A stretch of DNA of 64,000 bases from Candidatus Nomurabacteria bacterium. Its GTDB lineage: Bacteria > Patescibacteriota > Minisyncoccia > Phycocordibacterales > UBA9973. This document shows, piece after piece, positions 1 through 50,601 of this stretch. The DNA lies in assembly GCA_026395915.1 (NCBI GenBank), contig JAPLXU010000012.1, positions 8,996-72,995 on the forward strand, in the 5' to 3' direction. Both the position numbers and the translations under genes were made by a program. Every line of letters starts with the position of its first letter. Position 1 is the stretch's first letter. The notes under the pieces are model-generated. The model was not told the origin of the DNA. It searched no databases and saw nothing but the letters and a program-made list of their open reading frames with translations.

Positions 1-415
1 GAGAAGTTGAATATATTCCTGCCAGAGCGGGGAATCGAGAATCTTCAGAATTAATGACGGCTAAAATAAAAGAACTGGGTTGGAAACAGGAAAGAAATAT
101 AAAAGATTACATATTGAACTTGAAAAATACAGCTTACAAATCGTAAAAATTTTTCTACGTTTCTCTTTACTTTTTTCAAAAAGCATGGTAATACTTCAAA
201 GGAAACAGATCTTTAAAAACATATTGATTCGTCTGAATGCTTCAATTTCAGCCTTATTTTGCTGGTCGGTATCCTTAAAGCCTTATACAATTATATGAGG
301 AGTTAGGGATACCGATCAGTCAGAAAGTTTGGCGTAAACTGCGCCTGCAAGTTTGTCAGGAATGGCAAGCTCAAGTAATTGCGGAGACTGAAAGGTTGAC
401 GAAAGAAAAAAGCCT

Positions 416-1621
416 ATGAAGAAACAGTATGAATTTCAAGCCTCGCTTGAATTACTAGTTGGTGGTTGGCACCTCCTGCATGGAACGATTCAGTTCGGTA
501 ACGAGGGAGCCGGCGGAGCTCAAACTGTGCAGGAATCGCTGGAACAAGTCCAGGGGTTGAATCAAGAACTCAAGCCCCTCGGGATCGGGTTCCGTGTTTC
601 TGCGCACTGGTGGCACGAGCTGGCTGTCAACTCCAAGCACCCGATTGTGGGTGGGTCGGCGCACTTGAACAAGCCCCGTTGTATCGAACTGCCAGAGTGG
701 ATCGAAGGCGCCAAGAGCGGCAAATACCCGAAACCTGGCCGCTTGATTCCGCCTGGCTTTGGCACTCCTGGAGCGGATCTCGGAGCGTTCATTCATCCCG
801 ATCCGACTCGCCGGAAGTTGTGTCACGACATGATGGTCTATACCATGGAGGAGTGCGAGAACACAATGACTGCCCTCAGCATTGATGACGTCAACGGCAT
901 TTATTGGACCGGACCGGATGGGATCCGGTGGCAACGCTTGTGCAACGGCGACGATCCGCTCCTCGGCTACAAATGCAACCAGAAACTGGAGGAATGGGGT
1001 TTGGTCGTTGGCGGGGTAGGTAGTGCGCTCAAAGAAGCGCGGGAACGTGGTTTTACCAAGCGCGCGAAATTGCTCATCGAGGGCAAACCCGCAGGCGACC
1101 CCTGTTGGATTGATGTCTTCACTGATGACGTGCTGTGTTGCGAGGGAATTCGCCAAATCAATGCCATTGCCGGCGGCGAGCTCGCTTTGTGGCAATCGGA
1201 ACTCCTCCATACTCACGGCTCCGGCATCCCGTTTGCCGAAGGAATGAGGATCGCCATCAGGAACAAAGTGTTCGGTGGGCACATTCACCTCAACGCCGGC
1301 CCGGTGAGCATTCAGAAGTATGGACCGATGCTGGCCAAGCGTGGTGGAACGAGGCTCAGCAAATTTCAACAGGCGACGGATCCGGATTTTCTTCCGGGCG
1401 AAGGACCCAAAGAATGGCTGAGACATCAAACTGACGCTCTCATGGTCGGGGCCAGATGGTCGGCCTTGACTGGCAAGGTGTTCAGGGTTGAGTTTGATGC
1501 TCGCTTCAGCAGGTACGCAGACATGATGGCGAGGCTCAAGAAGTCGGCCATGTTTACGCTGGATGGGTTCAAGGAAGCGTGCGGGAAGCTCGGTTGTGAG
1601 GCCAAAACGGTCACAGTCTAG
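416..1621 (+). CDS. hypothetical protein encoded in a GC-rich (~58% GC) segment that looks foreign to this genome; no family assignable by eye
   Basis: 401-aa intact ORF. Composition contrasts sharply with the AT-rich flanks. A long antisense ORF (455-1429) is the usual high-GC artefact. A rho-independent terminator follows. Confidence 0.45.
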   Translation: MKKQYEFQASLELLVGGWHLLHGTIQFGNEGAGGAQTVQESLEQVQGLNQELKPLGIGFRVSAHWWHELAVNSKHPIVGGSAHLNKPRCIELPEWIEGAKSGKYPKPGRLIPPGFGTPGADLGAFIHPDPTRRKLCHDMMVYTMEECENTMTALSIDDVNGIYWTGPDGIRWQRLCNGDDPLLGYKCNQKLEEWGLVVGGVGSALKEARERGFTKRAKLLIEGKPAGDPCWIDVFTDDVLCCEGIRQINAIAGGELALWQSELLHTHGSGIPFAEGMRIAIRNKVFGGHIHLNAGPVSIQKYGPMLAKRGGTRLSKFQQATDPDFLPGEGPKEWLRHQTDALMVGARWSALTGKVFRVEFDARFSRYADMMARLKKSAMFTLDGFKEACGKLGCEAKTVTV

Positions 1622-1694
1622 GCAGTTTTCAGGCCCTCCAGTCCACTCGGTTTCTGATTGGTTGAGCTTACAACAATATCGGTTTTTTCAAGGA

Positions 1695-1724
1695 GGGTCA
1701 GCCAAGATCGGCTGACCCTTTTTT
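1695..1724 (+). terminator. rho-independent terminator
   Basis: Perfect hairpin gggtcagcc-aagatc-ggctgaccc followed by TTTTTT, ~75 nt after the stop at 1621. Confidence 0.7.
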
Positions 1725-1811
1725 CGTACTTCTTCGTTAAGTCTTAATAATCATTTGATATGGTATAAGATATATAAGTCGGGTGGTTATTATTATTTTT
1801 AAAAATTATTT

Positions 1812-2429
1812 ATGAATTACAATACTTTAGCGAAAAAAGAGACAGTGGAGAAAGTTATAAAAGCGCTTGGCGCTATGGGAGTCGAAGCTATTTTTGTTGA
1901 AAATGGAAAAAGCGCTTTGGAAAAAATAAAAGAATTTATTCCAGAAAAGGTTTCGGTTATGAACGGAGCTTCTGTCACGCTTGAGCAGATCGGTTTCGTT
2001 GACTATTTGAAATCCGGAAAGCACGACTGGAACAATCTCCACGAGGCGATACTTCAAGAAAAAGATCCTGCAAAGCAAGCAATGCTCCGCAAGGAAGCTG
2101 TGCTGTCCGATTATTATTTGGGAAGCGTGCATGCGCTCGCCGAGACGGGAGAGTTTATCGTCGCTTCAAACACTGGCAGTCAATTACCGCACATAGTTTT
2201 CACTTCGCCGAATTTGATTTTTGTGGTTAGCACGAAAAAGATTGCTCCGACTTTGGCCGACGCGATGAATCGTTTGATGGACTACGTCATACCACTCGAA
2301 GATAAACACATGAGAGGGAAATATGGCGTAGGCACGGCGCCAAACAAAATTCTGACGTTCACCGGCGAGAATTCGATGATGAAAAGAAAAGTGAGAATGA
2401 TATTGGTAAATGAAGATCTTGGGTTTTAA
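1812..2429 (+). CDS. LUD-domain protein (lactate utilization LutC/YkgG-like, DUF162 family)
   Basis: 205 aa. The overall pattern, including the C-terminal 'IVFVVSTKKIAPTLADA' segment, resembles LUD-domain proteins. Confidence 0.5.
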   Translation: MNYNTLAKKETVEKVIKALGAMGVEAIFVENGKSALEKIKEFIPEKVSVMNGASVTLEQIGFVDYLKSGKHDWNNLHEAILQEKDPAKQAMLRKEAVLSDYYLGSVHALAETGEFIVASNTGSQLPHIVFTSPNLIFVVSTKKIAPTLADAMNRLMDYVIPLEDKHMRGKYGVGTAPNKILTFTGENSMMKRKVRMILVNEDLGF

Positions 2430-2497
2430 ATAAATTTTGGCAAAAAAACAGCGCTCCCGTGAGGGGAACGCCGGTTTTGTGATTCCTGATTCTAGGC

Positions 2498-3865
2498 TCA
2501 GGCTGCCTTTGCGAGGTCGCTCCCGAGAACGAGATCACTCGTCTCGGAGAACTTCGGGAGTTCCCATTTGAGGGCAACTTCGACGATATTGTCGAGGCCG
2601 ACGAGGTTCGATTCGTCCGTCGGATTCATCGCGTGCCAGGCCCACGTCTTGGGATGTTCAGGTGTATTGTTATCCGCCACGATCTTGGCGAGATCAACAT
2701 TGGACTGGGCGGCGATCTCGATTCCAGTCATGTAGCCGATCGAGCCAAGCAGAAGGCTTGTGACCACATCCCAATGTTGCTGTTGGCTGGAGAAGTGGCT
2801 GGGATTGCGGAACTGGCTCAGTTCGAACTCAATTGTGAATGTTGTCTCACAGGGGTTGAGTTTCAAATCGTTGCGGGCGCCGATTTGCGCGCCGAGCCAA
2901 TCGACTTGGTGCCCATTTGCCATCGCGAGAGAGTTATGCGCTTGAACACCGGGAGGCGGTTGGTCGCCATTCATGCGACTCCAGGGTTCTCCACCGATAC
3001 GTTGGCCGAGGTATCCACAACCGGCAATGCGGCCGAGCGTAGTATTCAAGCCTTTGCCATGGAACCGGCGAATAAACCACCCATACCCAGCCTTCCTCAG
3101 CACCTTGAACGACCACTCTGGGCGAAAGCCCTGTAGGACATCGTGAGATGCGTCGTGATTGAGGAAGCACCAGCCCTTCAGACCCGCGGCTTCGACCATG
3201 CGAGCGATAACGATCCAGTGTTGAGGGGTATTTGCAATGTTCTGAGTGAACGTATCTGCCGGTGTCCAACCGCACATTGGGCAATTCTCAATAAAGAGTT
3301 TTACCCCGTACTCTTTTGCGTAGCGGATGAGCGGAATGAGAACTTCGCCGACGAGTCGCATGTTCTCCTCAATCGGGAGTTTCAGATTGCGGCCGACGAA
3401 GATCGAAACACCTTCAGTTTTCGCCCCAGCTTTGTTCAACTTGGCGGCCGCGCGGATCGCACGACGGACATGCTCGATGTTCTGACGCCGGAACATTGGA
3501 TTCTCATGGAGCAGATTCTCGAACACACCAACGGTGCCGAGCGCAACTTTTCCTCCACAAGCATCGGCGAGTTCACGGGCATCTTCATCATCCAAGTCAA
3601 CGCCGGTGCAGTCTTTGCGCGTCAACATAGCGATGTGGTGTGCAACCGGATCCGCCATCGATTCCGGAGGCACATTGGCGTGAGAGGGCGCATGAGCACC
3701 ACCCATTTCCAAGGACTCAACGCCATTAGCCACGGCCCAGGCAATCCATTTCAAGGCGGCAGTGTTTGCCGCCTTGCGGGGATCGTGAATGAACATCTTT
3801 GAGTCTGTGCCCGGAGGCGTTTGTACGGCGGCCGTAAGGACGCCGATTTTCATTATGTTTCTCAT
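2498..3865 (-). CDS. sugar phosphate isomerase/epimerase (xylose-isomerase-like TIM barrel) encoded in a GC-rich segment
   Basis: Long minus-strand ORF. The likely start is ATG at 3865 (MRNIMKIGVL...), not the upstream in-frame Met. The TIM-barrel isomerase-like pattern includes 'KLFIENCP'. GC is ~58%, far above the genome. Confidence 0.5.
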   Translation of the reverse strand: MRNIMKIGVLTAAVQTPPGTDSKMFIHDPRKAANTAALKWIAWAVANGVESLEMGGAHAPSHANVPPESMADPVAHHIAMLTRKDCTGVDLDDEDARELADACGGKVALGTVGVFENLLHENPMFRRQNIEHVRRAIRAAAKLNKAGAKTEGVSIFVGRNLKLPIEENMRLVGEVLIPLIRYAKEYGVKLFIENCPMCGWTPADTFTQNIANTPQHWIVIARMVEAAGLKGWCFLNHDASHDVLQGFRPEWSFKVLRKAGYGWFIRRFHGKGLNTTLGRIAGCGYLGQRIGGEPWSRMNGDQPPPGVQAHNSLAMANGHQVDWLGAQIGARNDLKLNPCETTFTIEFELSQFRNPSHFSSQQQHWDVVTSLLLGSIGYMTGIEIAAQSNVDLAKIVADNNTPEHPKTWAWHAMNPTDESNLVGLDNIVEVALKWELPKFSETSDLVLGSDLAKAA

Positions 3866-4097
3866 AGTCTTGGTTTGTATTTTTCCGTTGTATACCGAAA
3901 GATGCACACACATGCACCCTGTACCGCCAAAACACACTACGTGCGTTCGGCAGTAACCTTGTAAATACTATAAATATCCACAAGGCTACTGCCGAAATAT
4001 ACAGAAAAAACAAGCAAAAGAGCTCTGTTTTCAAGGTTCTAATTCATCTAATCTTCATGAGTATTACCACGAAATTGCTTTTTTCGCAAGGGCTTTA

Positions 4098-10007: not shown

Positions 10008-12905
10008 ATGATATCCCGGATATATGTGATGCCTAAGAAGATTGAGAATAAGGCAGATTCGTATCTTATCGACTCGAAATTATCCAAAAAAGAGCTTCAA
10101 AAACTCGCTGAGGCTCTCGCGAATCCCATTTTAGAAAATTATTATATCGATAGCTTTCCGACAAAAGAACTTTCTTTGAAATTTTCTTATGCGATTGAGA
10201 TAGGATTTTTACCAGGTGTCACAGACAATGTCGGCCAAACAGTCAAAGAAATTGCGACCGATCTTTTTCACTTGAAAAAAAGTTCTGATTTTCACGTTTA
10301 CACTTCTAAAATTCTGTTTGTTGAGTCAAACAAACTTGCTGATGCTCAAAAAATAGCTATGACTCTACATAATCCGCTTATCGAGAGAGCTTTTATCGCG
10401 AAAGTAGAAAATAAAAGTATGAGTTTGCCTATGAAAGCTCCAAAAGTGGTTCTCGAAAAAAAGAAGCCGGTCATAAATGTATTGTTTGAAGTCGAAGACG
10501 AAGAACTCATAAAAATCGGCAGGGAAGGAATAATGGACGAAAACGGCGGACGCAGAGGGCCACTCGCGCTTGATCTAGACTCGATGAAAGTTATCAAAAC
10601 GCATTTTGAAAAATTAAAAAGAAATCCGACGGATATCGAATTGGAATCTCTAGCGCAAACTTGGTCTGAACATTGCAAACACACGATTTTTGCTAATCCG
10701 ATAGACGATATTAAAGATGGTTTGTATAAAACTTATATAAAGGGAGCGACAAATTTGATACGTGAGAAAAAAGGAAAAAAAGATTTTTGTGTCTCTGTTT
10801 TCAGCGATAATTCTGGCGGAATAGTTTTTGATGACGATTATCTAATCACTCACAAAGTCGAGACGCACAATAGTCCTTCGGCCCTTGATCCCTTCGGCGG
10901 AGCGATCACAGGAATCGTCGGAGTCAATCGCGACACGATCGGTTTCGGTTTGGGCGCCAAGCCTGTGGCAAATGTTTACGGATTTTGTTTTGGTTTTCCC
11001 GATGATGAAAGAAAATTTTTTAGAGATAAAAATTTAACACAGCCTATGCTTTCGTCGAGAAGAATTATTGACGGGGTGATAAAAGGCATCAACGTCGGAG
11101 GCAATTGTTCCGGTATACCGACCCTCTCCGGTTTTGTAAAATTTGATGATCGTTATCGGGGAAAGCCTTTGGTATTTGCCGGAACTGTTGGTTTGATCCC
11201 AAGAAAATTAAATGGGAGAGAAATGCACGAAAAAAGAGCTCGAGCGGGGGATTACATTGTCGTCGTAGGCGGTAGAGTCGGCAAAGATGGCATTCATGGA
11301 GCAACTTTTTCTTCTGTTGTTATGGATTCGAATTCTCCGGCGACCGCAGTGCAAATAGGCGACCCGATCACTCAGAAAAAATTAAGCGATGCCATAGTCA
11401 AAGAGGCGCGCGATTTAGATTTGTATAACAGCATCACGGACAACGGCGCAGGTGGACTTTCTTGTTCCGTGGCGGAAATGGCAAAAGAATGCGGTGGCGC
11501 GAAAGTTTTTTTGGATAAAGCTCCACTCAAATATCCCGGCCTTCAGCCATGGGAAATTTGGATTTCAGAATCCCAAGAGCGGATGACCTTATCAGTTCCG
11601 AAAGGAAAATGGGGAAAGTTTCAAAAATTGATGGAAAGCCGAGGCGTAGAAGCGACTGTGATTGGAGAATTCACAAATTCAGGAAAATGTATTGTCGAGT
11701 GGAAAGGCAAAGTTATAATGAATATTGACCTTGAATTTTTGCATAATGGTTTGCCGAAACACAATTTAATTACTAGTTCTGTCATGCAGACCCCTCCCAA
11801 CCCTCCCCTTATCAAGGGGAGGGCGAAGGGTGAGATGTACACAAAAATTTTTGAAAATTTACTTGCAGACAAAAATATCAGCGGATTTTCTTTCATCTCT
11901 GAGCAATATGATCATGAAGTACAAGGGTCTTCAGTATTAAAACCACTCTCTGGTCCTGGCAAGATAAACACCGACGCGCAAGTCTTTTGTCCTGTTCTTA
12001 ATTCTAAAAAAGGAGTCGTTCTTTCATCTGGAATTTGTCCTTCGTATGGAGACGTCAGTACGTACCACATGGCAACTTGCGCGCTCGATACTGCCGTACG
12101 AAATGCTATTGCTTGCGGTGGGACTCTTTCTCATTTAGCAATTTTGGATAATTTTTGTTGGTGTTCATCTAATGATCAAAAGCGTTTGGCTCAACTTGTA
12201 GAATCTGTGAAAGCTTGTTACGACGGAGCCGTAAGTTATGGTACTCCGTTTATTTCGGGCAAGGATAGCATGTTCAACGACTTCAAGGGTTATGACGAGA
12301 AAGGTAATCCTGTTGCTATTTCTATTCCGCCAACTTTACTTATTTCCGCTATTAGCGTTATGCCTGATATCTATAAAACTGTTTCACCTGAATTTAAAAA
12401 TAGCGGAGACGCGATTTATCTGTTGGGAGAAACGCACGACGAGCTCGGTGTTCCAAAAGTTGATTTTGAAAAAAATTTAAAAACATATTTAGCTCTTGAG
12501 AAGGCGATTCAGAAAGAATTAGTAGCTTCTTCGATTTCTATAACTTCAGGAGGATTTGCTGTAGCGCTTGCTAAAGCATGTGTTGGGGGAATGTTAGGCT
12601 GTAAAGTTTCCTTAAACCAGATAGCGCTTAAAGCGCTATCTGTGGAAACTAAACTTTTTTCTGAAAGTCAGGGCAGAATCTTAGTATCGGTGTCCCTGAA
12701 AAAGACTAAACAATTCGAAAAACTTTGCGCAAGTGTTGCTTTTACGAAACTGGGAAAAACTAATAAAAGTCCTGCCCGCAATGCTTTGCATAACAATGCA
12801 GGCGGGGGTAGAATCACAATAATGGATGGCAAAGATAAAATAGTCGAAACGAACGTCAAAAAACTTCATAAAATTTATCACAATTTTTCGGACGAAATGA
12901 AATAA
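10008..12905 (+). CDS. purL: phosphoribosylformylglycinamidine synthase, PurS-PurL fusion (FGAM synthase II with N-terminal tandem PurS-like domains)
   Basis: N-terminal PurS-like signatures ('LANPILENYYI' and 'LHNPLIERAFI'), then the PurL core with 'HNSPSALDPFGGAITGIVGVNRD'. 965 aa. Carries two in-frame GC-rich inserts (11788-11836 and 12771-12808). Confidence 0.85.
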   Translation: MISRIYVMPKKIENKADSYLIDSKLSKKELQKLAEALANPILENYYIDSFPTKELSLKFSYAIEIGFLPGVTDNVGQTVKEIATDLFHLKKSSDFHVYTSKILFVESNKLADAQKIAMTLHNPLIERAFIAKVENKSMSLPMKAPKVVLEKKKPVINVLFEVEDEELIKIGREGIMDENGGRRGPLALDLDSMKVIKTHFEKLKRNPTDIELESLAQTWSEHCKHTIFANPIDDIKDGLYKTYIKGATNLIREKKGKKDFCVSVFSDNSGGIVFDDDYLITHKVETHNSPSALDPFGGAITGIVGVNRDTIGFGLGAKPVANVYGFCFGFPDDERKFFRDKNLTQPMLSSRRIIDGVIKGINVGGNCSGIPTLSGFVKFDDRYRGKPLVFAGTVGLIPRKLNGREMHEKRARAGDYIVVVGGRVGKDGIHGATFSSVVMDSNSPATAVQIGDPITQKKLSDAIVKEARDLDLYNSITDNGAGGLSCSVAEMAKECGGAKVFLDKAPLKYPGLQPWEIWISESQERMTLSVPKGKWGKFQKLMESRGVEATVIGEFTNSGKCIVEWKGKVIMNIDLEFLHNGLPKHNLITSSVMQTPPNPPLIKGRAKGEMYTKIFENLLADKNISGFSFISEQYDHEVQGSSVLKPLSGPGKINTDAQVFCPVLNSKKGVVLSSGICPSYGDVSTYHMATCALDTAVRNAIACGGTLSHLAILDNFCWCSSNDQKRLAQLVESVKACYDGAVSYGTPFISGKDSMFNDFKGYDEKGNPVAISIPPTLLISAISVMPDIYKTVSPEFKNSGDAIYLLGETHDELGVPKVDFEKNLKTYLALEKAIQKELVASSISITSGGFAVALAKACVGGMLGCKVSLNQIALKALSVETKLFSESQGRILVSVSLKKTKQFEKLCASVAFTKLGKTNKSPARNALHNNAGGGRITIMDGKDKIVETNVKKLHKIYHNFSDEMK

Positions 12906-12960
12906 TAAATAAAACAATACTCAAACTTAGCGATAGCAGAATTTGAGTATAGATAATAAA

Positions 12961-14625
12961 ATGGATCAAGAAATAAAAAATTGTAAACAATGTAAAAAAG
13001 ATTTCGTCATTGAGCCGGACGATTTTGGATTCTATGAAAAAATGAAGGTGCCTCCTCCTGTTTTTTGTCCTGAATGCCGACAACAACAGAGAATACTTCA
13101 TCGAAATTTCAAAACTTTATACAAAAGACCTTCGAGCAAGTCCGGTGAAATGATTATTTCAATGTACAATCCCGACGTTCCTTTTCCTGTCTATGACATT
13201 TCCGAGTGGTGGGGAGACGATTGGGAAGCCTCGTCATACGCGATGGATTTGGATTTATCCATTCCTTTCGTAAAACAAATGGATGAGCTTTTCAAAAAAG
13301 TTCCCCATTTCTCCTTGATGAACACCAAAAGCACGAATTGCGAATATTCAAACATGACTTTGCGTTCAAATAATTGCTATCTGATCTTTGGATGCATTGA
13401 CGATGAAAACTGCGATTACGGCCATATCGTCTGGAGTTCTACCGATTGCACCGACAACTTATATGTTTATAAATGCGAGCTTTGTTACGAATGCATGGAT
13501 TGCATTGGATCTAATAGATTGATTTATTCTGAGGAATGCGAAGCATGTGTCGACTCTATCGGTCTTTTTGATTGTCGTGGTTGTACTAATTGCATAGGTT
13601 GTGTCGGTTTGCGACAGCAGTCTCACAAAATTTTCAATCAACCTGTCACAAAAGAAGAATATCAAGAATTTCTACGCAACTATCCGCTCAATAAAAAAGA
13701 AAGCATAGAATATATTTTGGAAAAAAGGGAGGAACTCAGAAAAAAAATTCCGACTCGCGCGGTTTACGGTTCGCATAATACAAATGTTTCCGGAGATCAT
13801 ATATACAATGCTCACAATGTTCATTATTCTTTTGATATAAAAGGCGGAGAGAATAGTAAATTTTGTTTCACGGCAAAAGAAAATAACGAAGTTTATGATG
13901 GGTCTTTTACTATTGAAAATGAATTCAGTTATCAAATTTTAACTTGCGCCAATAGTCATAACGTGTTTTTTTCACATCTTTTAACTGATTGTAATGAGGG
14001 ATACTATTCCCAATTCTGCTTTAATTCAAAAAATATTTTCGGCTGTATGGGCTTGAGAAATAAGCAATATTGCATTTTGAATAAACAGTACACAAAAGAA
14101 GAATATGAAAAACTTATGCCACAAATCATTGAAAATATGAAAAAAACCGGAGACTGGGGCAATTTCTTTCCGATTTGGATGAGTCCATTCGCGTACAACG
14201 AATCAATCACAAATGAATATATGCCATTAACAAAAAAACAGGCGTTGGATCAAGGTTTTTCTTGGCGAGACGATATTCCAAGTACGACAGGAAAAGAAAA
14301 CTGCGCTTATGAAGACTTACCAAAAGATCCGAAAGAATACAGTGATGAAAAACTTTTGGATAAAATTTTGAAATGCGAGTCTTGCGGGAAAAATTACCGC
14401 TTCATATCTAGGGAAATTGGTTTCTATAAGAGAATGGGCTTGGCGCTTCCGTCGAAATGTTCCAATTGTCGCCATCAGAGACGAATGGATACTCGTAATA
14501 AAAGGGAATTGAATGATTCAACTTGCGCGTCGTGTGGTATTGAAATCGAGACTACTTTTTCAAAAGAAAAGCAAGAAGTATATAAAATTTACTGCGAGAA
14601 ATGTTATCAAAGAGAAATATACTAA
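12961..14625 (+). CDS. cysteine-rich protein, paralogue 1 of a 4-member family (duplicated N/C-terminal zinc-ribbon-like modules plus internal CxxCxxCxxC repeats)
   Basis: The ATG at 12961 is preferred over the TTG at 12943 because it aligns with the paralogue N-termini (..C-x2-C-KKDF-I-E-DDF-FYEK-VP-P-FCP-CR..). Ends ..YCEKCYQREIY. Confidence 0.7.
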   Translation: MDQEIKNCKQCKKDFVIEPDDFGFYEKMKVPPPVFCPECRQQQRILHRNFKTLYKRPSSKSGEMIISMYNPDVPFPVYDISEWWGDDWEASSYAMDLDLSIPFVKQMDELFKKVPHFSLMNTKSTNCEYSNMTLRSNNCYLIFGCIDDENCDYGHIVWSSTDCTDNLYVYKCELCYECMDCIGSNRLIYSEECEACVDSIGLFDCRGCTNCIGCVGLRQQSHKIFNQPVTKEEYQEFLRNYPLNKKESIEYILEKREELRKKIPTRAVYGSHNTNVSGDHIYNAHNVHYSFDIKGGENSKFCFTAKENNEVYDGSFTIENEFSYQILTCANSHNVFFSHLLTDCNEGYYSQFCFNSKNIFGCMGLRNKQYCILNKQYTKEEYEKLMPQIIENMKKTGDWGNFFPIWMSPFAYNESITNEYMPLTKKQALDQGFSWRDDIPSTTGKENCAYEDLPKDPKEYSDEKLLDKILKCESCGKNYRFISREIGFYKRMGLALPSKCSNCRHQRRMDTRNKRELNDSTCASCGIEIETTFSKEKQEVYKIYCEKCYQREIY

Positions 14626-14664
14626 AACATATTTCAGCTATAGCGTAAATGTGTAAATCGGAAA

Positions 14665-16410
14665 ATGAAAGAAGAAAATGAAAACAGAATATGCCAGAAC
14701 TGTAAAAAAGACTTTATCATTGAGTCGGATGATTTTCGATTTTATGAAAAGATTAAAATGCCTGCGCCGACTTTTTGTCCCAATTGTAGATTTCAAAGAC
14801 GGCTGCTTTTTAGAAATAACAGAGTTTTTTACAGACGAGAATGTGCTTTGTGTAGAAAGTCGCTATTAAGTGTTTATAATACAGAAAGGCCGTACATAAT
14901 TTATTGTCGTGATTGTTGGTTTTCAGATAAATGGGATCCAATGAGTTACGGACGTGAATATGATTTTTCTGTTCCATTTTTAAACCAATTTCGATCCTTA
15001 CAGTCAAAAGTTCCGAAGGCTAATCTTAATCAAACCAATTTTATTTCAAGTGATTATTGTAACTATGGTTACGATTTTAGAGAATGTTATTTATTGTTTG
15101 GAGGAAAAAATAATGAAAGAGTCTATTTTGGTAACCAAATTTTAGATTCTCGTGATTCGTTGGATATGTCTTTTTCTGAAAAAATAGAATTGAGCTATGA
15201 AAATTTAGAATGCCAAAGAGTAAATAAACTATTATTCGGCTTTTATTCCACAGACTGTGTTGAAAGCTCTTATTTAATTGATTGTAAAAATTGCATGAAC
15301 TGTTTCGGTTGCGTTGGGCTAGTAAATAAACAATATTGTATTTTTAATGAACAATACACGAAAGAAGAATATAAAAAATTTATAAATTCGAATGATGCTG
15401 GCAGTTTTAAAAATCATCAGAAATTTCTTGGAAAATTGCAAGAGCTAAAGTTAACTATGCCACATCGTTATGCTCGTATTTATAAATCAGTCAATTCTGA
15501 TGGAGACGATCTGTCGGAAGTCAGAAACACACATAATTCTTTTAGTTCCCATAAAGTAGAAAATTCAAAATATTTATTTTTTTGCAGAAATGGAACGAAA
15601 GATTGTTATGATACTTCGTTTCAAGGTTATAATGCTGAACTTCTTTATGAAATTGCCCACGGTTTTGGTGGATCAAATGGAGCTTTTGGTGTCAGAAACT
15701 TTAATAATCAAAATACATGTTACGTTGATGAATGCCAAAATTGCCTAAATGTTTTTGGCTGTGAAGGTCTCACAAAAAAACAATACTGCATTTTAAACAA
15801 ACAATACACGAAAGAGGAATATGAAGAACTTGTCCCGAAAATTATAAAACACATGAGCGATATGCCTTATATTGATCAAAAAGGCAGAGTTTATAAATAT
15901 GGAGAATTTTTCCCGAACGATCTGTCTCCATTTGCTTATAACGAAAGTATAGTGCAAGAATATTTTCCATTAACTAAAGAAGAAGCTTTGAAACATGGGT
16001 ATATGTGGAAAGATAGTGCGACAAGAAATTATAAAATAGATATTGAAAATGAGGATATACCAGATAATATTAAAGATGTTGAAGATGGTATAATAAACAA
16101 AGTGATTGCTTGTGAACATCATGGTAAATGTAAAGATCAGTGTACCGAAGCATTCAAAATCATTCCAGAAGAATTTAAATTTTACAAGAGAATGAATCTG
16201 CCCTTGCCGAGATTATGCCCAAATTGTCGACATTATCAGCGTTTAAAGTTTAGAAACCCTCTCAATCTCTGGCATAGAAAATGTATGTGTGACAGAAATA
16301 ACCATTTTCACGGACAGGATAAATGCGAAGTGGAATTTGAAACAAGTTATGCGCCGGATCGCCCAGAGATAGTTTACTGTGAAAAATGTTATCAGCAAGA
16401 AATTTATTAA
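14665..16410 (+). CDS. cysteine-rich protein, paralogue 2 (tandem with paralogue 1)
   Basis: 581 aa. Same architecture and the same C-terminus (..YCEKCYQQEIY). Contains the 'QYCILNKQYTKEEY' repeats. Confidence 0.7.
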   Translation: MKEENENRICQNCKKDFIIESDDFRFYEKIKMPAPTFCPNCRFQRRLLFRNNRVFYRRECALCRKSLLSVYNTERPYIIYCRDCWFSDKWDPMSYGREYDFSVPFLNQFRSLQSKVPKANLNQTNFISSDYCNYGYDFRECYLLFGGKNNERVYFGNQILDSRDSLDMSFSEKIELSYENLECQRVNKLLFGFYSTDCVESSYLIDCKNCMNCFGCVGLVNKQYCIFNEQYTKEEYKKFINSNDAGSFKNHQKFLGKLQELKLTMPHRYARIYKSVNSDGDDLSEVRNTHNSFSSHKVENSKYLFFCRNGTKDCYDTSFQGYNAELLYEIAHGFGGSNGAFGVRNFNNQNTCYVDECQNCLNVFGCEGLTKKQYCILNKQYTKEEYEELVPKIIKHMSDMPYIDQKGRVYKYGEFFPNDLSPFAYNESIVQEYFPLTKEEALKHGYMWKDSATRNYKIDIENEDIPDNIKDVEDGIINKVIACEHHGKCKDQCTEAFKIIPEEFKFYKRMNLPLPRLCPNCRHYQRLKFRNPLNLWHRKCMCDRNNHFHGQDKCEVEFETSYAPDRPEIVYCEKCYQQEIY

Positions 16411-17199: not shown

Positions 17200-18597
17200 A
17201 TGAGCGAGTTGAGAGAAAAATGCGGAATAGTCGGCATATACGGAAAAAATTTGCCAGTATCAAAGCTAGCCTTTTTTAGTCTTTTCGCTTTGCAACACAG
17301 AGGACAGGAAGCTTCTGGTATAACAACTAGCGACGGAAAAAAGCTTCACAGCCATAAAGGCGTGGGGCTTGTGTCTCAAGTTTATGAAAAAAAAGACATG
17401 GAGAATTTAATAGGACACATAGGAATTGGACATAACAGATATTCGACTTCGGGCGGAGGAGCTCTCGATCATGCTCAACCGATTGTGAATATGGAAAACA
17501 CTTTTGCTTTGGCTCACAACGGCAACCTACCGAGCGTAAAGTCTCTCGAAAAATTTCTTTGCTCAAAAAAAGCTTTGAAAAAAAATCGCATGGATTCAGA
17601 ACTCATTACTGACGCTGTCGATTATTATATGAAAGAAGGCAACTCGCTCGCGAAATCAGTGGAAAAAGCTTTTCCTTTGATCACCGGAGCTTTTTCGCTG
17701 GTAATGATGAATAAGGACACCTTAGTCGCTGTTCGTGACTCTTTCGGAATGCGCCCGCTTGCGCTCGGCAGAATCGGCAAAGGCTATGTCGTTGCTTCGG
17801 AAACATGCGCTCTTAAAACTATTGGCGCGACATTTTCACGAGAAATAAAACCAGGTGAAATGATAGTTATAAACGAAAAAGGGATCAAAAGTATACAACT
17901 GGCAAAAAGCACTCCAAATCATGATATTTTCGAATATGTTTATTTTGCTCGTCCTGACAGTGTATTGAATGGCAAACTAATTTATGAAGTTAGAAAAAAT
18001 TTCGGTAAAATGCTTGCAAATGAATTCAAAACAAAAGTTGATATCATTGTGCCCGTACCAGATACAGCTACTCCAGTCGCGCTCGGCTACAGTGAGGCCA
18101 CCGGCATCCCGATTGAAATGGCTTTGGTAAAAAATCGTTATGTGCATAGGACTTTCATCGAGCCTGATCAAAAGTCTCGCCGACACAGCGTCGCTTTAAA
18201 GCTCATACCACTTCCGCAAATTTTGAAAGGTAAAAAGATTGCGGTTTTAGACGATTCGATTGTGAGGGGGAACACTTGTAAAAGATTAGTGGAAACATTT
18301 TTCAAAGCTGGCGCTAAAGAAGTGCATCTTTTAATTTCCTCTCCACCTATTCGTTTTCCGGATTTTTACGGTATGGATACGCCAAATCAAAATGAACTGA
18401 TAGCATCACATATGACCGTAGAGGAAATCCGCAAGTTTCTCGGCGCCACGTCGCTAAATTATCTTTCACTTGACGGATTAATAAAATCTATCGGCTTGCC
18501 AAAGGAACATCTGTCTACGTCTTGTTTTACCGGTGTTTATCCTATTCCTTTGAAAGAACGTAAAGACGAAGTGAACTATGATGTCCCAAAAGAATAA
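17200..18597 (+). CDS. purF: amidophosphoribosyltransferase
   Basis: N-terminal 'CGIVGIYG' Ntn Cys, plus the PRTase domain 'VLDDSIVRGNT'. The start abuts the purQ stop. Confidence 0.9.
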   Translation: MSELREKCGIVGIYGKNLPVSKLAFFSLFALQHRGQEASGITTSDGKKLHSHKGVGLVSQVYEKKDMENLIGHIGIGHNRYSTSGGGALDHAQPIVNMENTFALAHNGNLPSVKSLEKFLCSKKALKKNRMDSELITDAVDYYMKEGNSLAKSVEKAFPLITGAFSLVMMNKDTLVAVRDSFGMRPLALGRIGKGYVVASETCALKTIGATFSREIKPGEMIVINEKGIKSIQLAKSTPNHDIFEYVYFARPDSVLNGKLIYEVRKNFGKMLANEFKTKVDIIVPVPDTATPVALGYSEATGIPIEMALVKNRYVHRTFIEPDQKSRRHSVALKLIPLPQILKGKKIAVLDDSIVRGNTCKRLVETFFKAGAKEVHLLISSPPIRFPDFYGMDTPNQNELIASHMTVEEIRKFLGATSLNYLSLDGLIKSIGLPKEHLSTSCFTGVYPIPLKERKDEVNYDVPKE

Positions 18598-20626
18598 CTC
18601 AAAAGAAAAATTAAAATTGGCAGTTCTTATTTCCAACGCAGGCACTGGCACAAACCTTCAGGCCATCATTGATGGAATCGAGAAAGACAAAATCAAGATG
18701 GAAATTTGCGCAGTAGTTTCTGATGTTTCCGATGCGGCTGGTTTGGATCGAGCGCGAAAACATAATTTAAAAATCGAAATCTGTCCGACGAAAGAAGCCC
18801 TGCTTCCGCTTTTGCAAAGATTAAATCCGGACTTTGTAGCTCTCGCCGGCTGGAAGCAGATTATTTTAGACGAAGTGATTCTCGCTTTTCCGAATAAAAT
18901 TTTGAATTTGCATCCTGGCTTGATTCCAGATAGCATTGACGGCATAGTAAAAAATCCTGATGGCACTGAAGCGCTTTGGAACAAGGGCAAGTTGACAAAT
19001 AAAGCTATTCAAAATTTCTTGGACAAAAAAGCTACTTTTGCCGGTTCAAGTATTCATTTCTTGACACTTAATTTTGATTTTGGACCGGTTTTAGGTAGAA
19101 CTTTTGAAAAAATTCAAGCCGGAGACACAGTGGATTCTCTATATGCTAGATTAAAAAATAAGGAGAACGAGCTTTATGAAGAAGTTTTAGAAAAATTAAC
19201 CTCACCCCAGCCCTCTCCTGAGAGGAGAGGGGGAATAAATAGACAAAAAATTTTAATAATTGGAAGCGGGGGACGAGAACATGCTATCGGCTGGAAAGTA
19301 GCGCAGTCACCTAGAGCAGGGCAGATTTTTTTTGCACCCGGAAATGCTGGAACGGCGGAACTGGGAACGAATGTAGCAATAGATGCGAAAGATATTTCTA
19401 AACTTTTAGAATTTGCGAAAAATGGAAAAATTAATCTGACTTTGGCTTTACCAGACGATCCGCTCGCTCTCGGCATTGTGGACGAATTTCAAAAAGCTGG
19501 TTTGCGAATCTGGGGTCCTACAAAAAGAGCCGCGCAGATCGAATGGTCAAAGGCGTTTTCAAAAGATTTCATGCGTCGACACAATTTGCCGACTGCGAAA
19601 TTTGAGATATTCAGCGATTTTGAAAAGGCGAAAAATTACGTAAAAAATCAATCATTGCCTATTGTCATCAAAGCAAGCGGGCTCGCTTTAGGAAAAGGCG
19701 TGATTATTTGTGAAACTATAAAAGAAGCGAACGAAACGCTTGAAAATATACTTGTTAAAAAAATATTTGGAGACGCGGGAAACGAAGTTGTGATAGAGGA
19801 GTTTCTTGTCGGACCAGAGATTTCCATTCATGCGTTTTCTGACGGAAAAGATTACAAAATGTTTCCGCCATCACAAGATCATAAAAAAGTCGGAGAAGGG
19901 AACACTGGACCGAATACGGGAGGCATGGGGACGATCAGCCCTTTACCGTTCGTGGATGAAAAACTTTTGAAAACTATCGAGGACACGATCGTTGCGCCGA
20001 CTTTGAAAGCTCTAGCCAAGGACAACGCGCCTTTTGTCGGAGTGCTCTATCCCGGGTTAATACTTACCAAAGATGGGCCGAAAATTTTAGAATACAACGC
20101 GCGCTTCGGTGATCCGGAAACGCAGACATACATGCGACTCTTGGAAACTGACTTACTAGATATTTTCGACGCATGCATTGATGGCACGCTGAAAAATTTA
20201 GAAATCAAATGGAGACCAAAGTCAGCCTGCACGATAGTGCTAGCTTCGGGAGGTTATCCGGGAAAATATGAAAAGGGAAAAGAAATTTTGGGAATTTCTC
20301 CCCTCCTTGTGGAGGAGGGGGTAGGGGGTGGTGATTCAGACCCCCTCTCAAATCTCCCCCTTAGCAAGGGGAGAGGTTCTCAACCACCTCGCCTTTCAGG
20401 CTCTCCTCCTTCGAAAGGAGGAGAGGACGTCGTCATCTTCCACGCTGGCACAAAGATGGAAAATAAAAATTTAGTAACGAATGGCGGAAGAGTGCTCGGA
20501 GTTTCGGCTGTGGGTAAAAATTTGCAAGAAGCGCTCAAAAAAGCCTATAAAGCAATAGAAAAAATTTCTTTTGAAGGAATGCAGTATAGAAAAGATATAG
20601 GCAAATCGGCGTTGGAATTGAAATAA
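18578..20626 (+). CDS. purD: bifunctional GAR transformylase / GAR synthetase (PurN-PurD fusion)
   Basis: N-terminal PurN pattern ('LAVLISNAGTGTNLQAII', 'NLHPGLIP'), then PurD ('ILIIGSGGREHAIGWK', ATP-grasp). Overlaps purF by 20 nt. Contains two in-frame GC-rich hairpin inserts (19199-19235 and ~20293-20430). Confidence 0.8.
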   Translation: MMSQKNNSKEKLKLAVLISNAGTGTNLQAIIDGIEKDKIKMEICAVVSDVSDAAGLDRARKHNLKIEICPTKEALLPLLQRLNPDFVALAGWKQIILDEVILAFPNKILNLHPGLIPDSIDGIVKNPDGTEALWNKGKLTNKAIQNFLDKKATFAGSSIHFLTLNFDFGPVLGRTFEKIQAGDTVDSLYARLKNKENELYEEVLEKLTSPQPSPERRGGINRQKILIIGSGGREHAIGWKVAQSPRAGQIFFAPGNAGTAELGTNVAIDAKDISKLLEFAKNGKINLTLALPDDPLALGIVDEFQKAGLRIWGPTKRAAQIEWSKAFSKDFMRRHNLPTAKFEIFSDFEKAKNYVKNQSLPIVIKASGLALGKGVIICETIKEANETLENILVKKIFGDAGNEVVIEEFLVGPEISIHAFSDGKDYKMFPPSQDHKKVGEGNTGPNTGGMGTISPLPFVDEKLLKTIEDTIVAPTLKALAKDNAPFVGVLYPGLILTKDGPKILEYNARFGDPETQTYMRLLETDLLDIFDACIDGTLKNLEIKWRPKSACTIVLASGGYPGKYEKGKEILGISPLLVEEGVGGGDSDPLSNLPLSKGRGSQPPRLSGSPPSKGGEDVVIFHAGTKMENKNLVTNGGRVLGVSAVGKNLQEALKKAYKAIEKISFEGMQYRKDIGKSALELK

Positions 20627-25448: not shown

Positions 25449-27026
25449 ATGAACAACATTCAAATTCTTATCGTAGATTATGGCTCACAATATACGCTCG
25501 TCATCGGGAGAATCTTGCGCGAACTTGGTGTGCGAAGTCTAATACTACCTCCAAAAAAAGTCGATGAATGGCTAAAAAATAATACTCCAAAAGCAGTTAT
25601 ACTTTCTGGCAGTAATTTTAGTGTGCATCAAAAAGGAGCGCCGGAGCTTCCAAAGTTACTCGGTATCGCTCTTCACAAAAGTCATGAAGTAAAAAGTAAA
25701 TATCAAATTTTAGGAATTTGTTATGGCATGCAACTTCTCGCTCATAAACTCGGAGGAAAAGTTGCGCGTCCACTCGCTCATCGCGAATATGGTCCGTCCA
25801 TCGTTACTTTAGATACTAAACATCCGCTTTTTGCCGGCGTAACGAAAAAAACAGAAGTCTGGGCTAGTCATGGTGATACTGTGATAAAACTTCCCAAAGG
25901 TTTTGCTTCTATTGCCACTTCAGAAGGTATCGCAGCCATGAGCAACAAAGATAATCGTGTGCTGGGAATTCAATTTCATCCCGAAGTTGTCGACACAAAG
26001 GAGGGGAGAAAAATTTTGCAAAACTTTTTAGAACTTTCAAAATGCGAGAAAGATTGGAACCCGACAGATTTAATTCACCAGATTCAAAAAGAAGTTCTCG
26101 ATATCGTAAATAAAGATGGAAATAAAAAAAATGTTGTTCTCGGCGTTTCTGGCGGGGTTGATTCCACAACTCTCTCTGCTATTCTCGCTCCCGTTTTGGG
26201 TAAAAGGCTTTTTTGCGTGGCTATAGACACAGGCGGACTTCGAGAAGGCGAACTTTCAGAACTGAAAGCGAATATGAAAAGCGTCCTTTCGCAAGAACGG
26301 TTTTTGCGAAAGGCAAATCTCGTTGTGATTGATGCCAGCGAAGAATTTGTAAAAAATATCGGTAAAACGATTGACGGTGAAGAAAAACGCGCAAAGTTTC
26401 GTGAAATCTATCAAAAAATATTTGAAGAGCAAATAAAAAAACACAATGCCGGTTTCATCGCGCAGGGAACTCTCGCGACGGATATTATTGAAAGTGGCAA
26501 AGCAGGGAAGTCGGCAATGATCAAAACTCACCACAACGTCGGCCTGAAATGGAAAGTGGAAGATTTGCATCCACTTAGAAATTTATTCAAGTACGAAGTT
26601 CGAGAACTTGCTCGCGTGTTACGTCTTCCATCTGCTATTTCCGAACGAAATCCATTTCCGGGTCCGGGTCTCTATCTGCGGGTTGTTGGCGCGCCAGTAT
26701 CAAAAGAAAATATCGAATTAGTGAGAGAAGCGGACAAAACCGTCGCTGATATTCTTAAAAAACACAATTTGAATAAAAATATTTCCCAACTCATTGTTGC
26801 TCTCCTCGGCGTGAATTCTGTCGGCGTGAAAGGGGACGAGAGAGTGTATGGGCATTCGCTAGCCGTGCGAGCTGTGCAAACTTCCGACTTTATGACAGCT
26901 AAAGGCTATTATTTTCCGGAAGAAGTCATGAATGAAATCACCAGCGCGCTCACAAAGCATAAAAATATTGTAAGAGTATTTTTTGATATGACTCCAAAAC
27001 CCCCCGCCACGACAGAATTTGAATAA
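25449..27026 (+). CDS. guaA: GMP synthase (glutamine-hydrolysing)
   Basis: Start chosen at the internal Met (MNNIQILIVDYGSQYT..). GATase domain, then 'VSGGVDS' ATP-PPase motif. Divergent from guaB with only a ~27-bp spacer. Confidence 0.9.
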   Translation: MNNIQILIVDYGSQYTLVIGRILRELGVRSLILPPKKVDEWLKNNTPKAVILSGSNFSVHQKGAPELPKLLGIALHKSHEVKSKYQILGICYGMQLLAHKLGGKVARPLAHREYGPSIVTLDTKHPLFAGVTKKTEVWASHGDTVIKLPKGFASIATSEGIAAMSNKDNRVLGIQFHPEVVDTKEGRKILQNFLELSKCEKDWNPTDLIHQIQKEVLDIVNKDGNKKNVVLGVSGGVDSTTLSAILAPVLGKRLFCVAIDTGGLREGELSELKANMKSVLSQERFLRKANLVVIDASEEFVKNIGKTIDGEEKRAKFREIYQKIFEEQIKKHNAGFIAQGTLATDIIESGKAGKSAMIKTHHNVGLKWKVEDLHPLRNLFKYEVRELARVLRLPSAISERNPFPGPGLYLRVVGAPVSKENIELVREADKTVADILKKHNLNKNISQLIVALLGVNSVGVKGDERVYGHSLAVRAVQTSDFMTAKGYYFPEEVMNEITSALTKHKNIVRVFFDMTPKPPATTEFE

Positions 27027-27046: not shown

Positions 27047-27131
27047 CTCCTCCTGAAACAATTTTTGAAAATACGCCCTCGAGGTCAACAGGACAGGGAA
27101 CCCACTTTTCTTAAAATTGTTTCAGGAGGAG
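27047..27131 (+). ncRNA. conserved structured intergenic element, copy 1 (19-bp perfect closing stem around a conserved 47-nt core)
   Basis: ctcctcctgaaacaatttt ... aaaattgtttcaggaggag encloses GAAAATACGCCCTCGAGGTC-N16-CACTTTTCTT. The 3' arm contains the purH Shine-Dalgarno AGGAGG. Copies 2 and 3 are listed below. Confidence 0.5.
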
Positions 27132-36686: not shown

Positions 36687-36761
36687 CAGCAAACAATTTT
36701 CGAAAATACGCCCTCGAGGTCATAAGGATAAGGAACTCACTTTTCTTAAAATTGTTTACTG
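36687..36761 (+). ncRNA. conserved structured intergenic element, copy 2
   Basis: cagcaaacaatttt ... aaaattgtttactg stem (14 bp, 1 mismatch) around the core CGAAAATACGCCCTCGAGGTCATAAGGATAAGGAACTCACTTTTCTT. Lies 18 nt upstream of the rplI ATG. Confidence 0.5.
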
Positions 36762-50553: not shown

Positions 50554-50601
50554 AACTTTTTCACTTTAGTTTAGTAAAGTCTGAGCAAGGACTCCCCTTG
50601 C

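Follow-up and report, generated by a model that had tools for sequence, protein, structure and literature searches.

Three-block BoxC-type repeats within conserved genes of a Candidatus Nomurabacteria genome and their association with DUF559 nuclease genes

The intrastrand triplex motif, the class to which the BoxC and PIT repeats of Escherichia coli belong, is defined by ITxF (Holder et al., 2015; PMC4666352) as three consecutive blocks that can form an intrastrand triplex, with stems of 6-15 nt, short loops and at most one mismatch. The first stem is C-rich and is followed by a loop, a G-rich stem, a short loop and a second mirror stem; the loops are less conserved than the stems. The motifs are G/C-rich, highly conserved, dispersed in multiple copies and often found as inverted pairs, and they are abundant in Enterobacteria, cyanobacteria and Neisseria (PMC4666352). 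Here we describe repeats of the same layout in a 64-kb stretch of DNA from a Candidatus Nomurabacteria metagenome-assembled genome (MAG), which is called the window below. Six of ten copies lie in frame within purL, a purN-purD fusion and pepN, and the four others flank a small gene whose product carries DUF559, a Vsr-like endonuclease domain.

The E. coli K-12 chromosome carries 23 copies of the repeat, and those of strain MG1655 are described as "always located intergenically" (Holder et al., 2015; PMC4666352). According to the reference list of that article (reference 46), BoxC was first reported in the envM paper. The triplex forms in vitro and is not detectable in vivo, and promoter and terminator activities of the E. 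coli elements were absent in earlier tests. Motif sites are hot spots of local genome variability between strains, which was attributed to replication or repair instability (PMC4666352).

Rickettsia palindromic elements (RPEs) form families of about 150 bp with a conserved encoded peptide, and are found in frame in unrelated housekeeping genes (PMC10969869; PMC3733652). Repetitive extragenic palindromic (REP) units are tagged with GTAG or CGTC at one end and are occasionally intragenic (PMC3733652). Two inverted REP units make a REPIN, the form that probably replicates, which folds into a long hairpin, and single units look like decayed remnants; the gene for the REP-associated tyrosine transposase (RAYT) is flanked by repeats, essentially single-copy, vertically inherited and co-evolving (PMC3116915).

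Hairpin units of the window and their class

The window has a GC content of 39%, is 92% coding and contains a purine-biosynthesis cluster, cell-wall genes, gltX, pepN, topA and others. Its PurL is 100% identical to a Candidatus Nomurabacteria MAG protein, the next matches being Nomurabacteria and Paceibacteria proteins with 67-76% identity. A first-pass annotation, made from the letters alone, had pointed to GC-rich hairpins inside purL, purN-purD and pepN and in intergenic repeats, and had compared them with RPEs. An exact scan (pyrimidine arm of at least 6 nt with at least four C, loop of 3-9 nt, complementary purine arm) found 10 hairpins in the 64 kb, starting at 11801, 19211, 20300, 20353, 20401, 42763, 42814, 43288, 43376 and 54417, compared with a chance count of 0.15 +/- 0.38 and a maximum of 2 in 200 dinucleotide-preserving shuffles. 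All four intragenic sites and the intergenic composites were recovered where the annotation had placed them. Some of its details needed correction: the pepN loop, given as CAGGGC, is CAGGC (5 nt), so that the hairpin spans 54417-54437, and a local GC content above 70% on a background of about 35% compares with measured values of 55-66% in 44-nt windows (65% for the 23-nt purL hairpin) and of 39% for the window. The elements are GC islands inside this 39% GC genome.

One of the six intragenic hairpins is in purL (ORF 10008-12905; Pfam AIRS, AIRS_C and FGAR-AT linker), four, including one in the linker, are in purN-purD (ORF 18578-20626; Formyl_trans_N and GARS N/A/C) and one is in pepN (ORF 53752-56433; M1 aminopeptidase by Pfam). 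The remaining four constitute two intergenic composites on either side of the small open reading frame (ORF) 42835-43227. Stems in the window measure 7-11 nt (CCCTCCCC, TCCCCCT, CCCTCTCC and similar). Over 6.2-10.6 kb, both PurN-PurD inserts included, the window sequence was reproduced with 100% identity in three Logan assemblies obtained independently from other sequencing runs; the inserts in purN-purD are therefore not assembly errors. Being identical, these contigs were uninformative on presence or absence between strains, and an exact-protein lookup of the window PurL gave no match. At Rfam gathering thresholds, a tRNA-Leu was the sole match in the whole window, hence the hairpins do not belong to any curated RNA family. 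A Pfam search of the 48 main non-nested window ORFs of at least 100 aa detected no transposase, RAYT or integrase.

Each unit comprises three blocks, the third of which was overlooked when the hairpins were first read: a pyrimidine box and a spacer of 2-8 nt precede the pyrimidine arm, loop and purine arm. The box mirrors the arm; alternatively, a purine box follows the purine arm on its downstream side. Thus CCCCTCCC lies ahead of CCCTCCCC..GGGGAGGG in purL. With a loop limit of 1-8 nt (the ITxF limit of 1-6 nt is slightly stricter), the third block of the window copies had at most one mismatch to the mirrored arm in 5 of 10 cases and two mismatches in 3, and was degenerate in 2. At the DUF559 loci described below, a mirror third block with at most one mismatch was present at 146 of 195 hairpins, versus 10 of 189 at decoy offsets. 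Units are 35-45 nt long, and two inverted units make a composite of 98-133 nt, as found at 42751-42848, 43274-43406 and 20298-20425 (unit coordinates are given without strand throughout). Composites fold, as single-stranded DNA, into one long hairpin each.

Judged by this three-block architecture, the window units belong to the BoxC/PIT/intrastrand triplex motif class. Like BoxC and its E. coli form TM_ECO, they have three G/C-rich blocks that satisfy the block rule, and they are dispersed, multi-copy (10 copies in 64 kb) and arranged in inverted pairs. They differ in that the E. coli copies are intergenic and have no reported link to flanking genes, whereas most window copies are intragenic and translated, in a host of the candidate phyla radiation (CPR), and the window repeats have a DUF559 nuclease partner. 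The TM_ECO consensus, CCCTCNCCC-N3-6-GGGNGAGGG-N3-GGGNGAGGG, is not matched by the window stems; with the same layout and a different stem sequence, the window units are a sister type rather than TM_ECO itself. Intergenic location is an observation made in E. coli and not a structural criterion of the class.

The 18-nt hairpin YYCCCCTTATCAGGGGRR was searched for in one genome per species. At least 120 loci were obtained, with 154 matches listed, and about 280 matches were expected by chance. The upstream box AACCCCCT, which was absent from the search pattern, accompanied about 145 of the 154 matches listed, and many of these were full inverted composites. Taxa among the matches listed were Poribacteria, Gallionellaceae, Nitrospirales, Nitrospinota, Desulfuromonadaceae, Omnitrophota, Chloroflexota, Zixibacteria, several CPR groups and Rickettsiales MAGs (L044, L076, L080 and L121). 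Only 17 of 139 copies among them were in long stop-free stretches, which indicates that copies outside the CPR are mostly intergenic.

Copies within purL, purN-purD and pepN

In pepN, a half element (54394-54437; CCACCACCTCGTCCTTCAGACA followed by CTCCCCCT-CAGGC-AGGGGGAG) is located between the N-terminal and catalytic domains. It coincides with an insertion of 14 aa, PTTSSFRHSPSGRG (54391-54432), that was missing in 23 of 24 orthologues. By direct reading, this unit looks similar to the right-hand part of the PurD composite (CCACCTCGCCTTTCAGGCTCTCCTCCTT..AAGGAGGAGAG), and its third block is degenerate, with three mismatches. A second variable segment of PepN (aa 536-551) was considered as a hairpin element and rejected, being an ordinary variable loop.

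The PurD composite (20298-20425) lies in a loop between the GARS_A and GARS_C domains and is translated SPLLVEEGVGGGDSDPLSNLPLSKGRGSQPPRLSGSPPSKGGED. It is made of hairpin A (CCCCTCCT-TGTGG-AGGAGGGG), a purine box, a central loop, the pyrimidine box CCACCTCGCC and hairpin B (CTCTCCTCCTT-CGA-AAGGAGGAGAG). This insert of about 40 aa, between the ATP-grasp and C-terminal domains, was missing in 24 of 34 aligned orthologues; in the other 10, precisely this position was occupied by segments that hairpins encode, some related to that of the window and some different. The central loop contains a second, nested unit of 46 nt (20338-20383; AGACCCCCTCTCAAATCTCCCCCTTAGCAAGGGGAGAGGTTCTCAA), which resembles the purL unit AGACCCCTCCCAACCCTCCCCTTATCAAGGGGAGGG and in which the third block mirrors the arm perfectly. 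The nested unit was missing in the element of a related CPR genome (L004) that is otherwise 89-90% identical to the window composite.

A single unit is present in the segment that joins the PurN and PurD halves (19199-19231; box ACCTCACCCC, hairpin CCCTCTCCT-GAG-AGGAGAGGG, translated SPQPSPERRGG); by direct reading it also resembles the right half of the PurD composite. The linker segment was variably present in fusion orthologues, with at least two types of peptide, SPQPSP[ED]RRG.. and SPPAPLLVKERVAEGRVRY. The unit in purL (11790-11823), the one originally flagged, consists of the box ACCCCTCC (11790-11797) and the hairpin CCCTCCCCTT-ATC-AAGGGGAGGG (11801-11823), and is translated ..TPPNPPLIKGRA.. 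within an interdomain linker. In the orthologue alignment this site is a hypervariable linker to which the hairpin contributes only about four residues; several PurL orthologues have comparable hairpin-encoded peptides there, e.g. APLLIKERGE and SPQPSPERRGS, and other pyrimidine/purine hairpins are present at the same site in L004 and in a second related CPR locus, L205. The purL site is thus the weakest case and not a clean insertion. In conclusion, the proposal that palindromic repeats persist in frame as peptide insertions in conserved enzymes was borne out by the orthologue alignments of pepN, PurD and the PurN/PurD linker; lineage-specific insertion held for pepN, the PurD loop and the variably present linker, and failed for the hypervariable linker of purL.

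An AlphaFold2 model was computed on the PurN-PurD alignment. The two inserts, at residues 210-220 and 575-615, had a confidence score (pLDDT) below 50, compared with about 90 in the neighbouring domains; elsewhere, such low values were limited to one known flexible loop. The PurN-PurD inserts are therefore predicted to be disordered loops.

The repeats of the window are related to one another to different degrees. The purL hairpin had been described as the reverse complement, with one base different, of the hairpin in the intergenic repeats. The match exists, at 42812-42833, and the difference is a 1-nt indel in the loop; the purL unit resembles the unit at 42811-42848 read as its reverse complement, and the purL arm 11784-11818 is 74% complementary to 42817-42851 across 35 nt, a likeness that extends into the flanking box. 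That all hairpins are copies of one mobile repeat family is an oversimplification: the repeats that flank the DUF559 gene are matched by the purL unit and by the one nested in purD, and the other hairpins have different arms and loops. Taken together, the hairpins represent a dispersed GC-rich repeat, of which some copies are whole and others halved, nested or decayed.

Whatever the frame, no stop codon can arise within an arm made purely of pyrimidines or purely of purines, so that stops can occur only in the loops. Single units had 4-5 of 6 frames open, compared with 3.2-3.5 in random windows, and large composites had 1-3, compared with 1.4-1.9. The idea that the elements are stop-free by construction was rejected on these values, as the excess of open frames is modest.

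The first-pass annotation had held that related segments at the same positions in orthologues would speak against insertion, and such segments were found at all three purine-gene sites. At the PurD site, the element of L205 was 97% identical to that of the window, with flanking coding DNA only 63-67% identical, and the element of L004 was 89-90% identical, with flanks of 61-72%; conversely, a third locus (L206) had the closest flanks (75%) and an element of 58-64% identity. The L004 element measures about 87-93 nt and the L205 element represents the left half only, both at the same codon position as in the window. The similarity of the element is thus decoupled from that of its host gene, so that orthologue segments at the same sites do not show an ancestral origin. 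In three related CPR purine loci, all seven pyrimidine/purine hairpins were intragenic, and six of them were at three shared sites (purL linker, PurN/PurD linker and PurD loop) with differing arms. These sequence comparisons fit recurrent occupation or replacement at permissive hot spots, rather than ancestral host sequence.

DUF559 genes flanked by the repeats

The gene between the two intergenic composites (42835-43227, minus strand) encodes a protein of 130 aa with a Vsr-like PD-(D/E)XK endonuclease domain. It matched PF04480 with E = 4.8e-30 (104 bits, Pfam cutoff 20.6) and the Protein Data Bank entry 3HRL, an "endonuclease-like protein", with E = 2.5e-11. Residues E71, D73 and H77, which form the motif E-x-D-x3-H, are invariant in the DUF559 alignment (A4). 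The NCBIfam model for YcjD gave a score of 57.7, below the cutoff of 218; the window protein is therefore not an equivalog of YcjD.

Composite 1 (42751-42848) is made of the inverted units CAACCCCCT-ATT-TCCCCCTTATCAGGGGGA and CCTCCCCTGATAAGGGGAGG-ATTAAGG-AGGGGTTG separated by a spacer, and its final bases encode the last codons and the stop codon of the DUF559 gene. As single-stranded DNA it folded into one long hairpin (-24.7 kcal/mol, z = -4.8, none of 200 shuffles equally stable). Composite 2 (43274-43406), upstream of the gene, contains the two inverted units CAACCCCCTTTTATCCCCCTTATCAGGGGGGG and CCTCCCTGATAAGGGAGGTTAGGAGGGTTG and also folded into one long hairpin (-32.3 kcal/mol, z = -5.95). 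The spacer of composite 2 holds a palindrome from another family, indicating that elements of different families can be combined or nested.

A tblastn search in the hairpin loci listed (at least 120) found four DUF559 homologues (Omnitrophota, Paludibacter and two others), each bracketed by units. An independent sample of 80 metagenome loci was fetched using protein patterns internal to the DUF559 domain alone. Pyrimidine/purine hairpins were present within 150 nt of the gene at 74 of these 80 loci, on both sides at 34, and their density was 6.3 per kb near the DUF559 gene compared with 0.20 per kb elsewhere. When only genes with complete flanks were considered, 66 of 71 DUF559 genes had hairpins within 150 nt, versus 4 of 72 control ORFs of the same loci (Fisher p = 2e-29). 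The arms and loops of the flanking hairpins sort by DUF559 protein cluster: YCCCCCT with TATC, GATA, TGTC or GACA loops in the clade of the window protein, CCCCCCTT in a cyanobacteria-like clade, TTCCCCTCTT with TGAC or GTCA loops in a low-GC clade, and CCCCTCTCC in other clusters. In a 74%-identical relative (L125), the boxes and arms of the window repeats were conserved and the spacer had diverged. Close CPR homologues, with 63-80% identity, are numerous; five of five further CPR loci had flanking units, and three of them share the window locus murG-DUF559-gltX. By gene neighbourhood, therefore, the repeats have a conserved partner gene, DUF559, across unrelated phyla.

In E. coli K-12 (L207, 11180-11770), a BoxC/TM_ECO-type unit, CCCCTCACCCTAACCCTCTCCCCAGAGGGGCGAGGGG, lies about 165 nt downstream of the DUF559 gene ycjD, in the fabI-ycjD spacer. 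The envM gene of the first BoxC report is fabI. The stretch that begins just ahead of this unit and includes ycjD is missing in about 38% of complete E. coli genomes. Across a spread sample of complete genomes, those with ycjD (n = 37) had 11-27 BoxC-like places (median 18), and those without (n = 23) had 1-14 (median 3; Mann-Whitney p = 3e-10, uncorrected for phylogeny). This copy-number association is confounded by phylogroup and is only suggestive. O157:H7 was considered as a clean indel of a ycjD cassette and discarded; the region beyond fabI is replaced there by a different island and cannot serve as a plain empty site.

Relatives of the window protein nick or cleave DNA. Among the Vsr-like nucleases there are true homing endonucleases, for instance I-Bth0305I (EDxHD), which can act as selfish enzymes (PMC3239194), and in Caulobacter a DUF559-domain protein damages DNA in vivo and is linked to methylated-cytosine motifs (PMC12907096). 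The window protein is a DUF559 domain related to 3HRL and has a conserved E-x-D-x3-H motif. It differs from 3HRL, I-Bth0305I and Caulobacter VsrA in that no linked cytosine methyltransferase is present in the window and that it is not within an intron or intein; a link to dispersed hairpin repeats is not described for these proteins in the searchable papers.

At two loci (L069, 100-621; L127, about 1060-1500), a DUF559 domain and its flanking units are in frame, at the same site, within a long DNA-methyltransferase-like ORF (..IEV[KR]P..[cassette]..VELTDFSVFY..). This arrangement may be a nuclease cassette in a host gene or a Vsr-like/methylase pairing. Many close DUF559 homologues (P0392-P0510) are on contigs of just 0.5-2 kb, consistent with flanking repeats breaking metagenome assemblies.

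Neither intragenic triplex-motif repeats in the CPR nor the DUF559-repeat association was found described in the searchable literature, whose coverage excludes most subscription journals, so that an earlier description of either is possible.

Proposed spread of the repeats, and other features of the window

We consider it probable that the window elements are BoxC-type repeats which turn over, enter essential genes in frame, are partnered with DUF559, spread through the action of a nuclease and are filtered by selection. By analogy with REPIN and RAYT, we infer that DUF559 may mobilise the repeats. The nuclease would recognise and nick the hairpin or a triplex-prone structure, and repair of the break by copying or gene conversion would spread and homogenise the repeat in trans, as proposed for RAYT and REPINs. 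Selection would then remove genic copies unless the frame is kept, stops are absent and the site is a permissive loop. A more general version, which we put forward tentatively and on balance would not yet back, is that the creation, spread and homogenisation of BoxC repeats would be the work of DUF559 nucleases, the enzymes so far missing, in a REPIN/RAYT-like partnership with a different nuclease fold and in many phyla including E. coli (ycjD), cyanobacteria and the CPR. In gene-dense CPR genomes, essential enzymes would routinely gain disordered loops in this way.

The resemblance to REPINs includes the short palindromes, the repeat-flanked gene and the inverted doublet that folds as one hairpin, which is the case for both intergenic composites. 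It does not extend to the GTAG or CGTC tag, which is missing beside the palindromes of the window units, to the third mirror block, or to the partner, a PF04480 Vsr-like nuclease and not the Y1 transposase PF01797 (Y1_Tnp), for which there was no match among the 48 window ORFs scanned. A classical RAYT/REP arrangement exists in the related CPR genome L004 (GCA_038078255.1, 18580-19360), where a Y1_Tnp gene (IS200/IS605-like) is flanked on both sides by AGGCAACGCCTTGT hairpins. RAYT was considered as the partner of the window elements and rejected, this hairpin being a different one. Miniature inverted-repeat transposable elements (QMITE1 of Coxiella, ERIC and those of Anabaena) are likewise small non-autonomous repeats with inverted ends that can make in-frame fusions with ORFs (PMC10969869; PMC5896051). 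For the window elements, no target-site duplication, transposase-derived ends or related insertion sequence were found, and the ends are inverted repeats only because each end is palindromic.

Several observations weigh against the proposed spread. No transposition event was seen, the nearest relatives compared being only about 75% identical in PurL, with no strain pair of filled and empty sites; no target-site duplication was visible at the pepN, purL and purD junctions, as read on filled sites, and vertical inheritance of ancient date could partly explain why orthologues are occupied at the same sites. Of the intragenic hairpins, four of six (19211, 20300, 20401 and 54417) are unlike the DUF559-flanking arms and loops of the window genome, half of the ten window copies have two or more mismatches in the third block, and the open-frame excess of the units is only modest. 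In E. coli, the O157 genomes, which have no ycjD, keep about 12 BoxC copies. In vivo dimethyl sulphate footprinting gave no support for a stable triplex, and no link of the motif to mobile elements or to particular flanking genes was found (Holder et al., 2015; PMC4666352). The activity of DUF559 on hairpin substrates is putative. Finally, in five CPR relatives (L209-L213) a gap of 5-8 nt separates the upstream unit from the ATG of the DUF559 gene, and the purine arm GGGAGGA of this unit is Shine-Dalgarno-like, so that the hairpin could occlude the translation start of the nuclease; the association could run in either direction, the gene homing into repeats or the repeats regulating the gene.

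The first of these directions, in which DUF559 is a selfish homing-type nuclease that lands in pre-existing repeats as its target site, while the repeats spread by slippage or another enzyme, is in our opinion unlikely, and is the alternative to be taken most seriously. It would account for the location of the gene between units or whole composites, for the DUF559 cassettes embedded in frame with repeats in a methyltransferase-like ORF (L069, L127) and for the many close homologues on very short contigs, and the Vsr-like relatives do include the homing endonuclease I-Bth0305I (PMC3239194). However, no repeat-bearing locus had an obvious empty target site, and CPR relatives keep a single locus, murG-DUF559-gltX, which suggests vertical inheritance rather than hopping. 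The co-variation of hairpin type with nuclease clade over deep divergence is predicted alike by homing and by spread of the repeats through DUF559. We regard as improbable that the intragenic hairpins are selected functional structures (translation or transcription pausing at domain boundaries, or mRNA stabilisation) and not selfish DNA. All four intragenic sites are indeed at domain boundaries or linkers, the element DNA is far better conserved than the flanking coding DNA and the likely ribosome-binding site of DUF559 in CPR relatives falls within the range of the upstream unit, with which it overlaps. Linkers, however, are simply the most permissive places for insertion; the presence of the hairpins is patchy among orthologues of the same enzyme, the same modules are found intergenic, nested and in unrelated contexts of many phyla, and the E. 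coli elements have no promoter or terminator activity (PMC4666352).

Slightly less probable again is a model in which the repeats are immobile and result from slippage together with local biased repair, DUF559 performing a Vsr-type very-short-patch conversion of T:G to C:G in C-run/G-run contexts, and in which the flanking repeats are binding or regulatory sites of DUF559. Vsr-family enzymes repair T:G mismatches towards G:C, and this property favours the model, as does the contrast between the GC-rich elements and the 39% GC of the genome around them. The Caulobacter DUF559 protein is linked to methylated-cytosine motifs (PMC12907096), and Holder et al. ascribe variation at the E. coli sites to replication and repair instability (PMC4666352). 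Local repair cannot, however, yield the same 35-130-nt multi-block sequence in unrelated genes, a nested copy, or elements 97% identical where the gene flanks are 63-67% identical. The comparison with RPEs made in the first-pass annotation holds for behaviour, the inserts being in frame and compatible with the protein fold, and not for identity, given the Nomurabacteria host and the three-block BoxC architecture. Both kinds of element are palindromes placed in frame in unrelated housekeeping genes, where they add tolerated peptides (PMC10969869), and the triplex-type motif does occur in some Rickettsiales MAGs (L044, L076, L080 and L121). As described, RPEs are specific to Rickettsia and have no known partner enzyme, whereas the present units have pyrimidine/purine blocks, cross phyla and are linked to DUF559. 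Given the Patescibacteria MAG host, and three-block units of 35-45 nt compared with elements of about 150 bp in ten families defined in Rickettsia (PMC10969869), it is very improbable that the window elements are homologues of the RPE families.

BoxC, PIT and triplex-motif repeats, reportedly treated by Bergler in 1992 and by Hoyne and Maher in 2000 and 2002, have been known in E. coli since 1992 and have been examined by biophysical means; to our knowledge, neither their origin nor a partner protein nor the way in which they spread has been established. The DUF559 domain is very common, and we know of no role assigned to small stand-alone members such as YcjD. The cross-phylum, co-varying link between the two makes both questions experimentally addressable in E. 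coli K-12. In the CPR, core metabolic enzymes regularly receive lineage-specific insertions from selfish repeats; alignments, homology models and structure models of CPR enzymes will carry repeat-derived segments, and the repeats may break assemblies. The intragenic copies also bear on the origin of new protein loops, and they provide, beside Rickettsia, a second well-documented case of palindromic DNA surviving within genes.

Other repeats were observed in the window. A second palindrome family, CCTGCCCGCAATGCTT..GCAT..ATGCAGGCGGG, has copies at 12771-12806, 29629-29666 and 34842-34878. The copy in purL is a clean in-frame insertion of 12 aa, SPARNALHNNAGG, missing in 27 of 28 orthologues, the remaining one (P0028) having a similar insert at the same position; of the other copies, one lies close to the 3' end of purE and one within the gene for a penicillin-binding protein. 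A third family, CCTTTCGCAAGAAC(G/C)GTT(T/C)TTGC(G/A)AAAGG, is present in guaA (26285-26315), in the spacer of composite 2 (43321-43349) and, in a weaker form, in purL (12723-12749). A repeat of 67-79 nt, 82-91% identical between copies and with inverted ends AAACAATTTT...AAAATTGTTT, was found upstream of purH (27056-27122), upstream of rplI (36691-36757) and beside scpA/scpB (52918-52996); a regulatory leader and a small mobile element are both conceivable identities.

Positions 1-4000 of the window have a GC content of 48-52%, compared with 33-41% over most of the window, and their ORFs encode a LUD domain, a xylose-isomerase-like TIM barrel and a product without Pfam match. This region looks compositionally foreign and could result from horizontal transfer or from a chimeric join in the MAG contig. 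An exact tandem duplication of 37 nt, TCCCGTCACTCCAAAAATAGAAACATTATTTTTGATA, in two copies (43983-44056), spans the start of an Lcl_C-domain ORF and the end of the neighbouring ORF. Four large paralogous ORFs are located at 12943-16410 (plus strand) and 48781-52302 (minus strand), with one treble-clef zinc-finger match; two of them are inserted between purL and purQ in the purine operon, and pairs are 71-81% similar in stretches of DNA.

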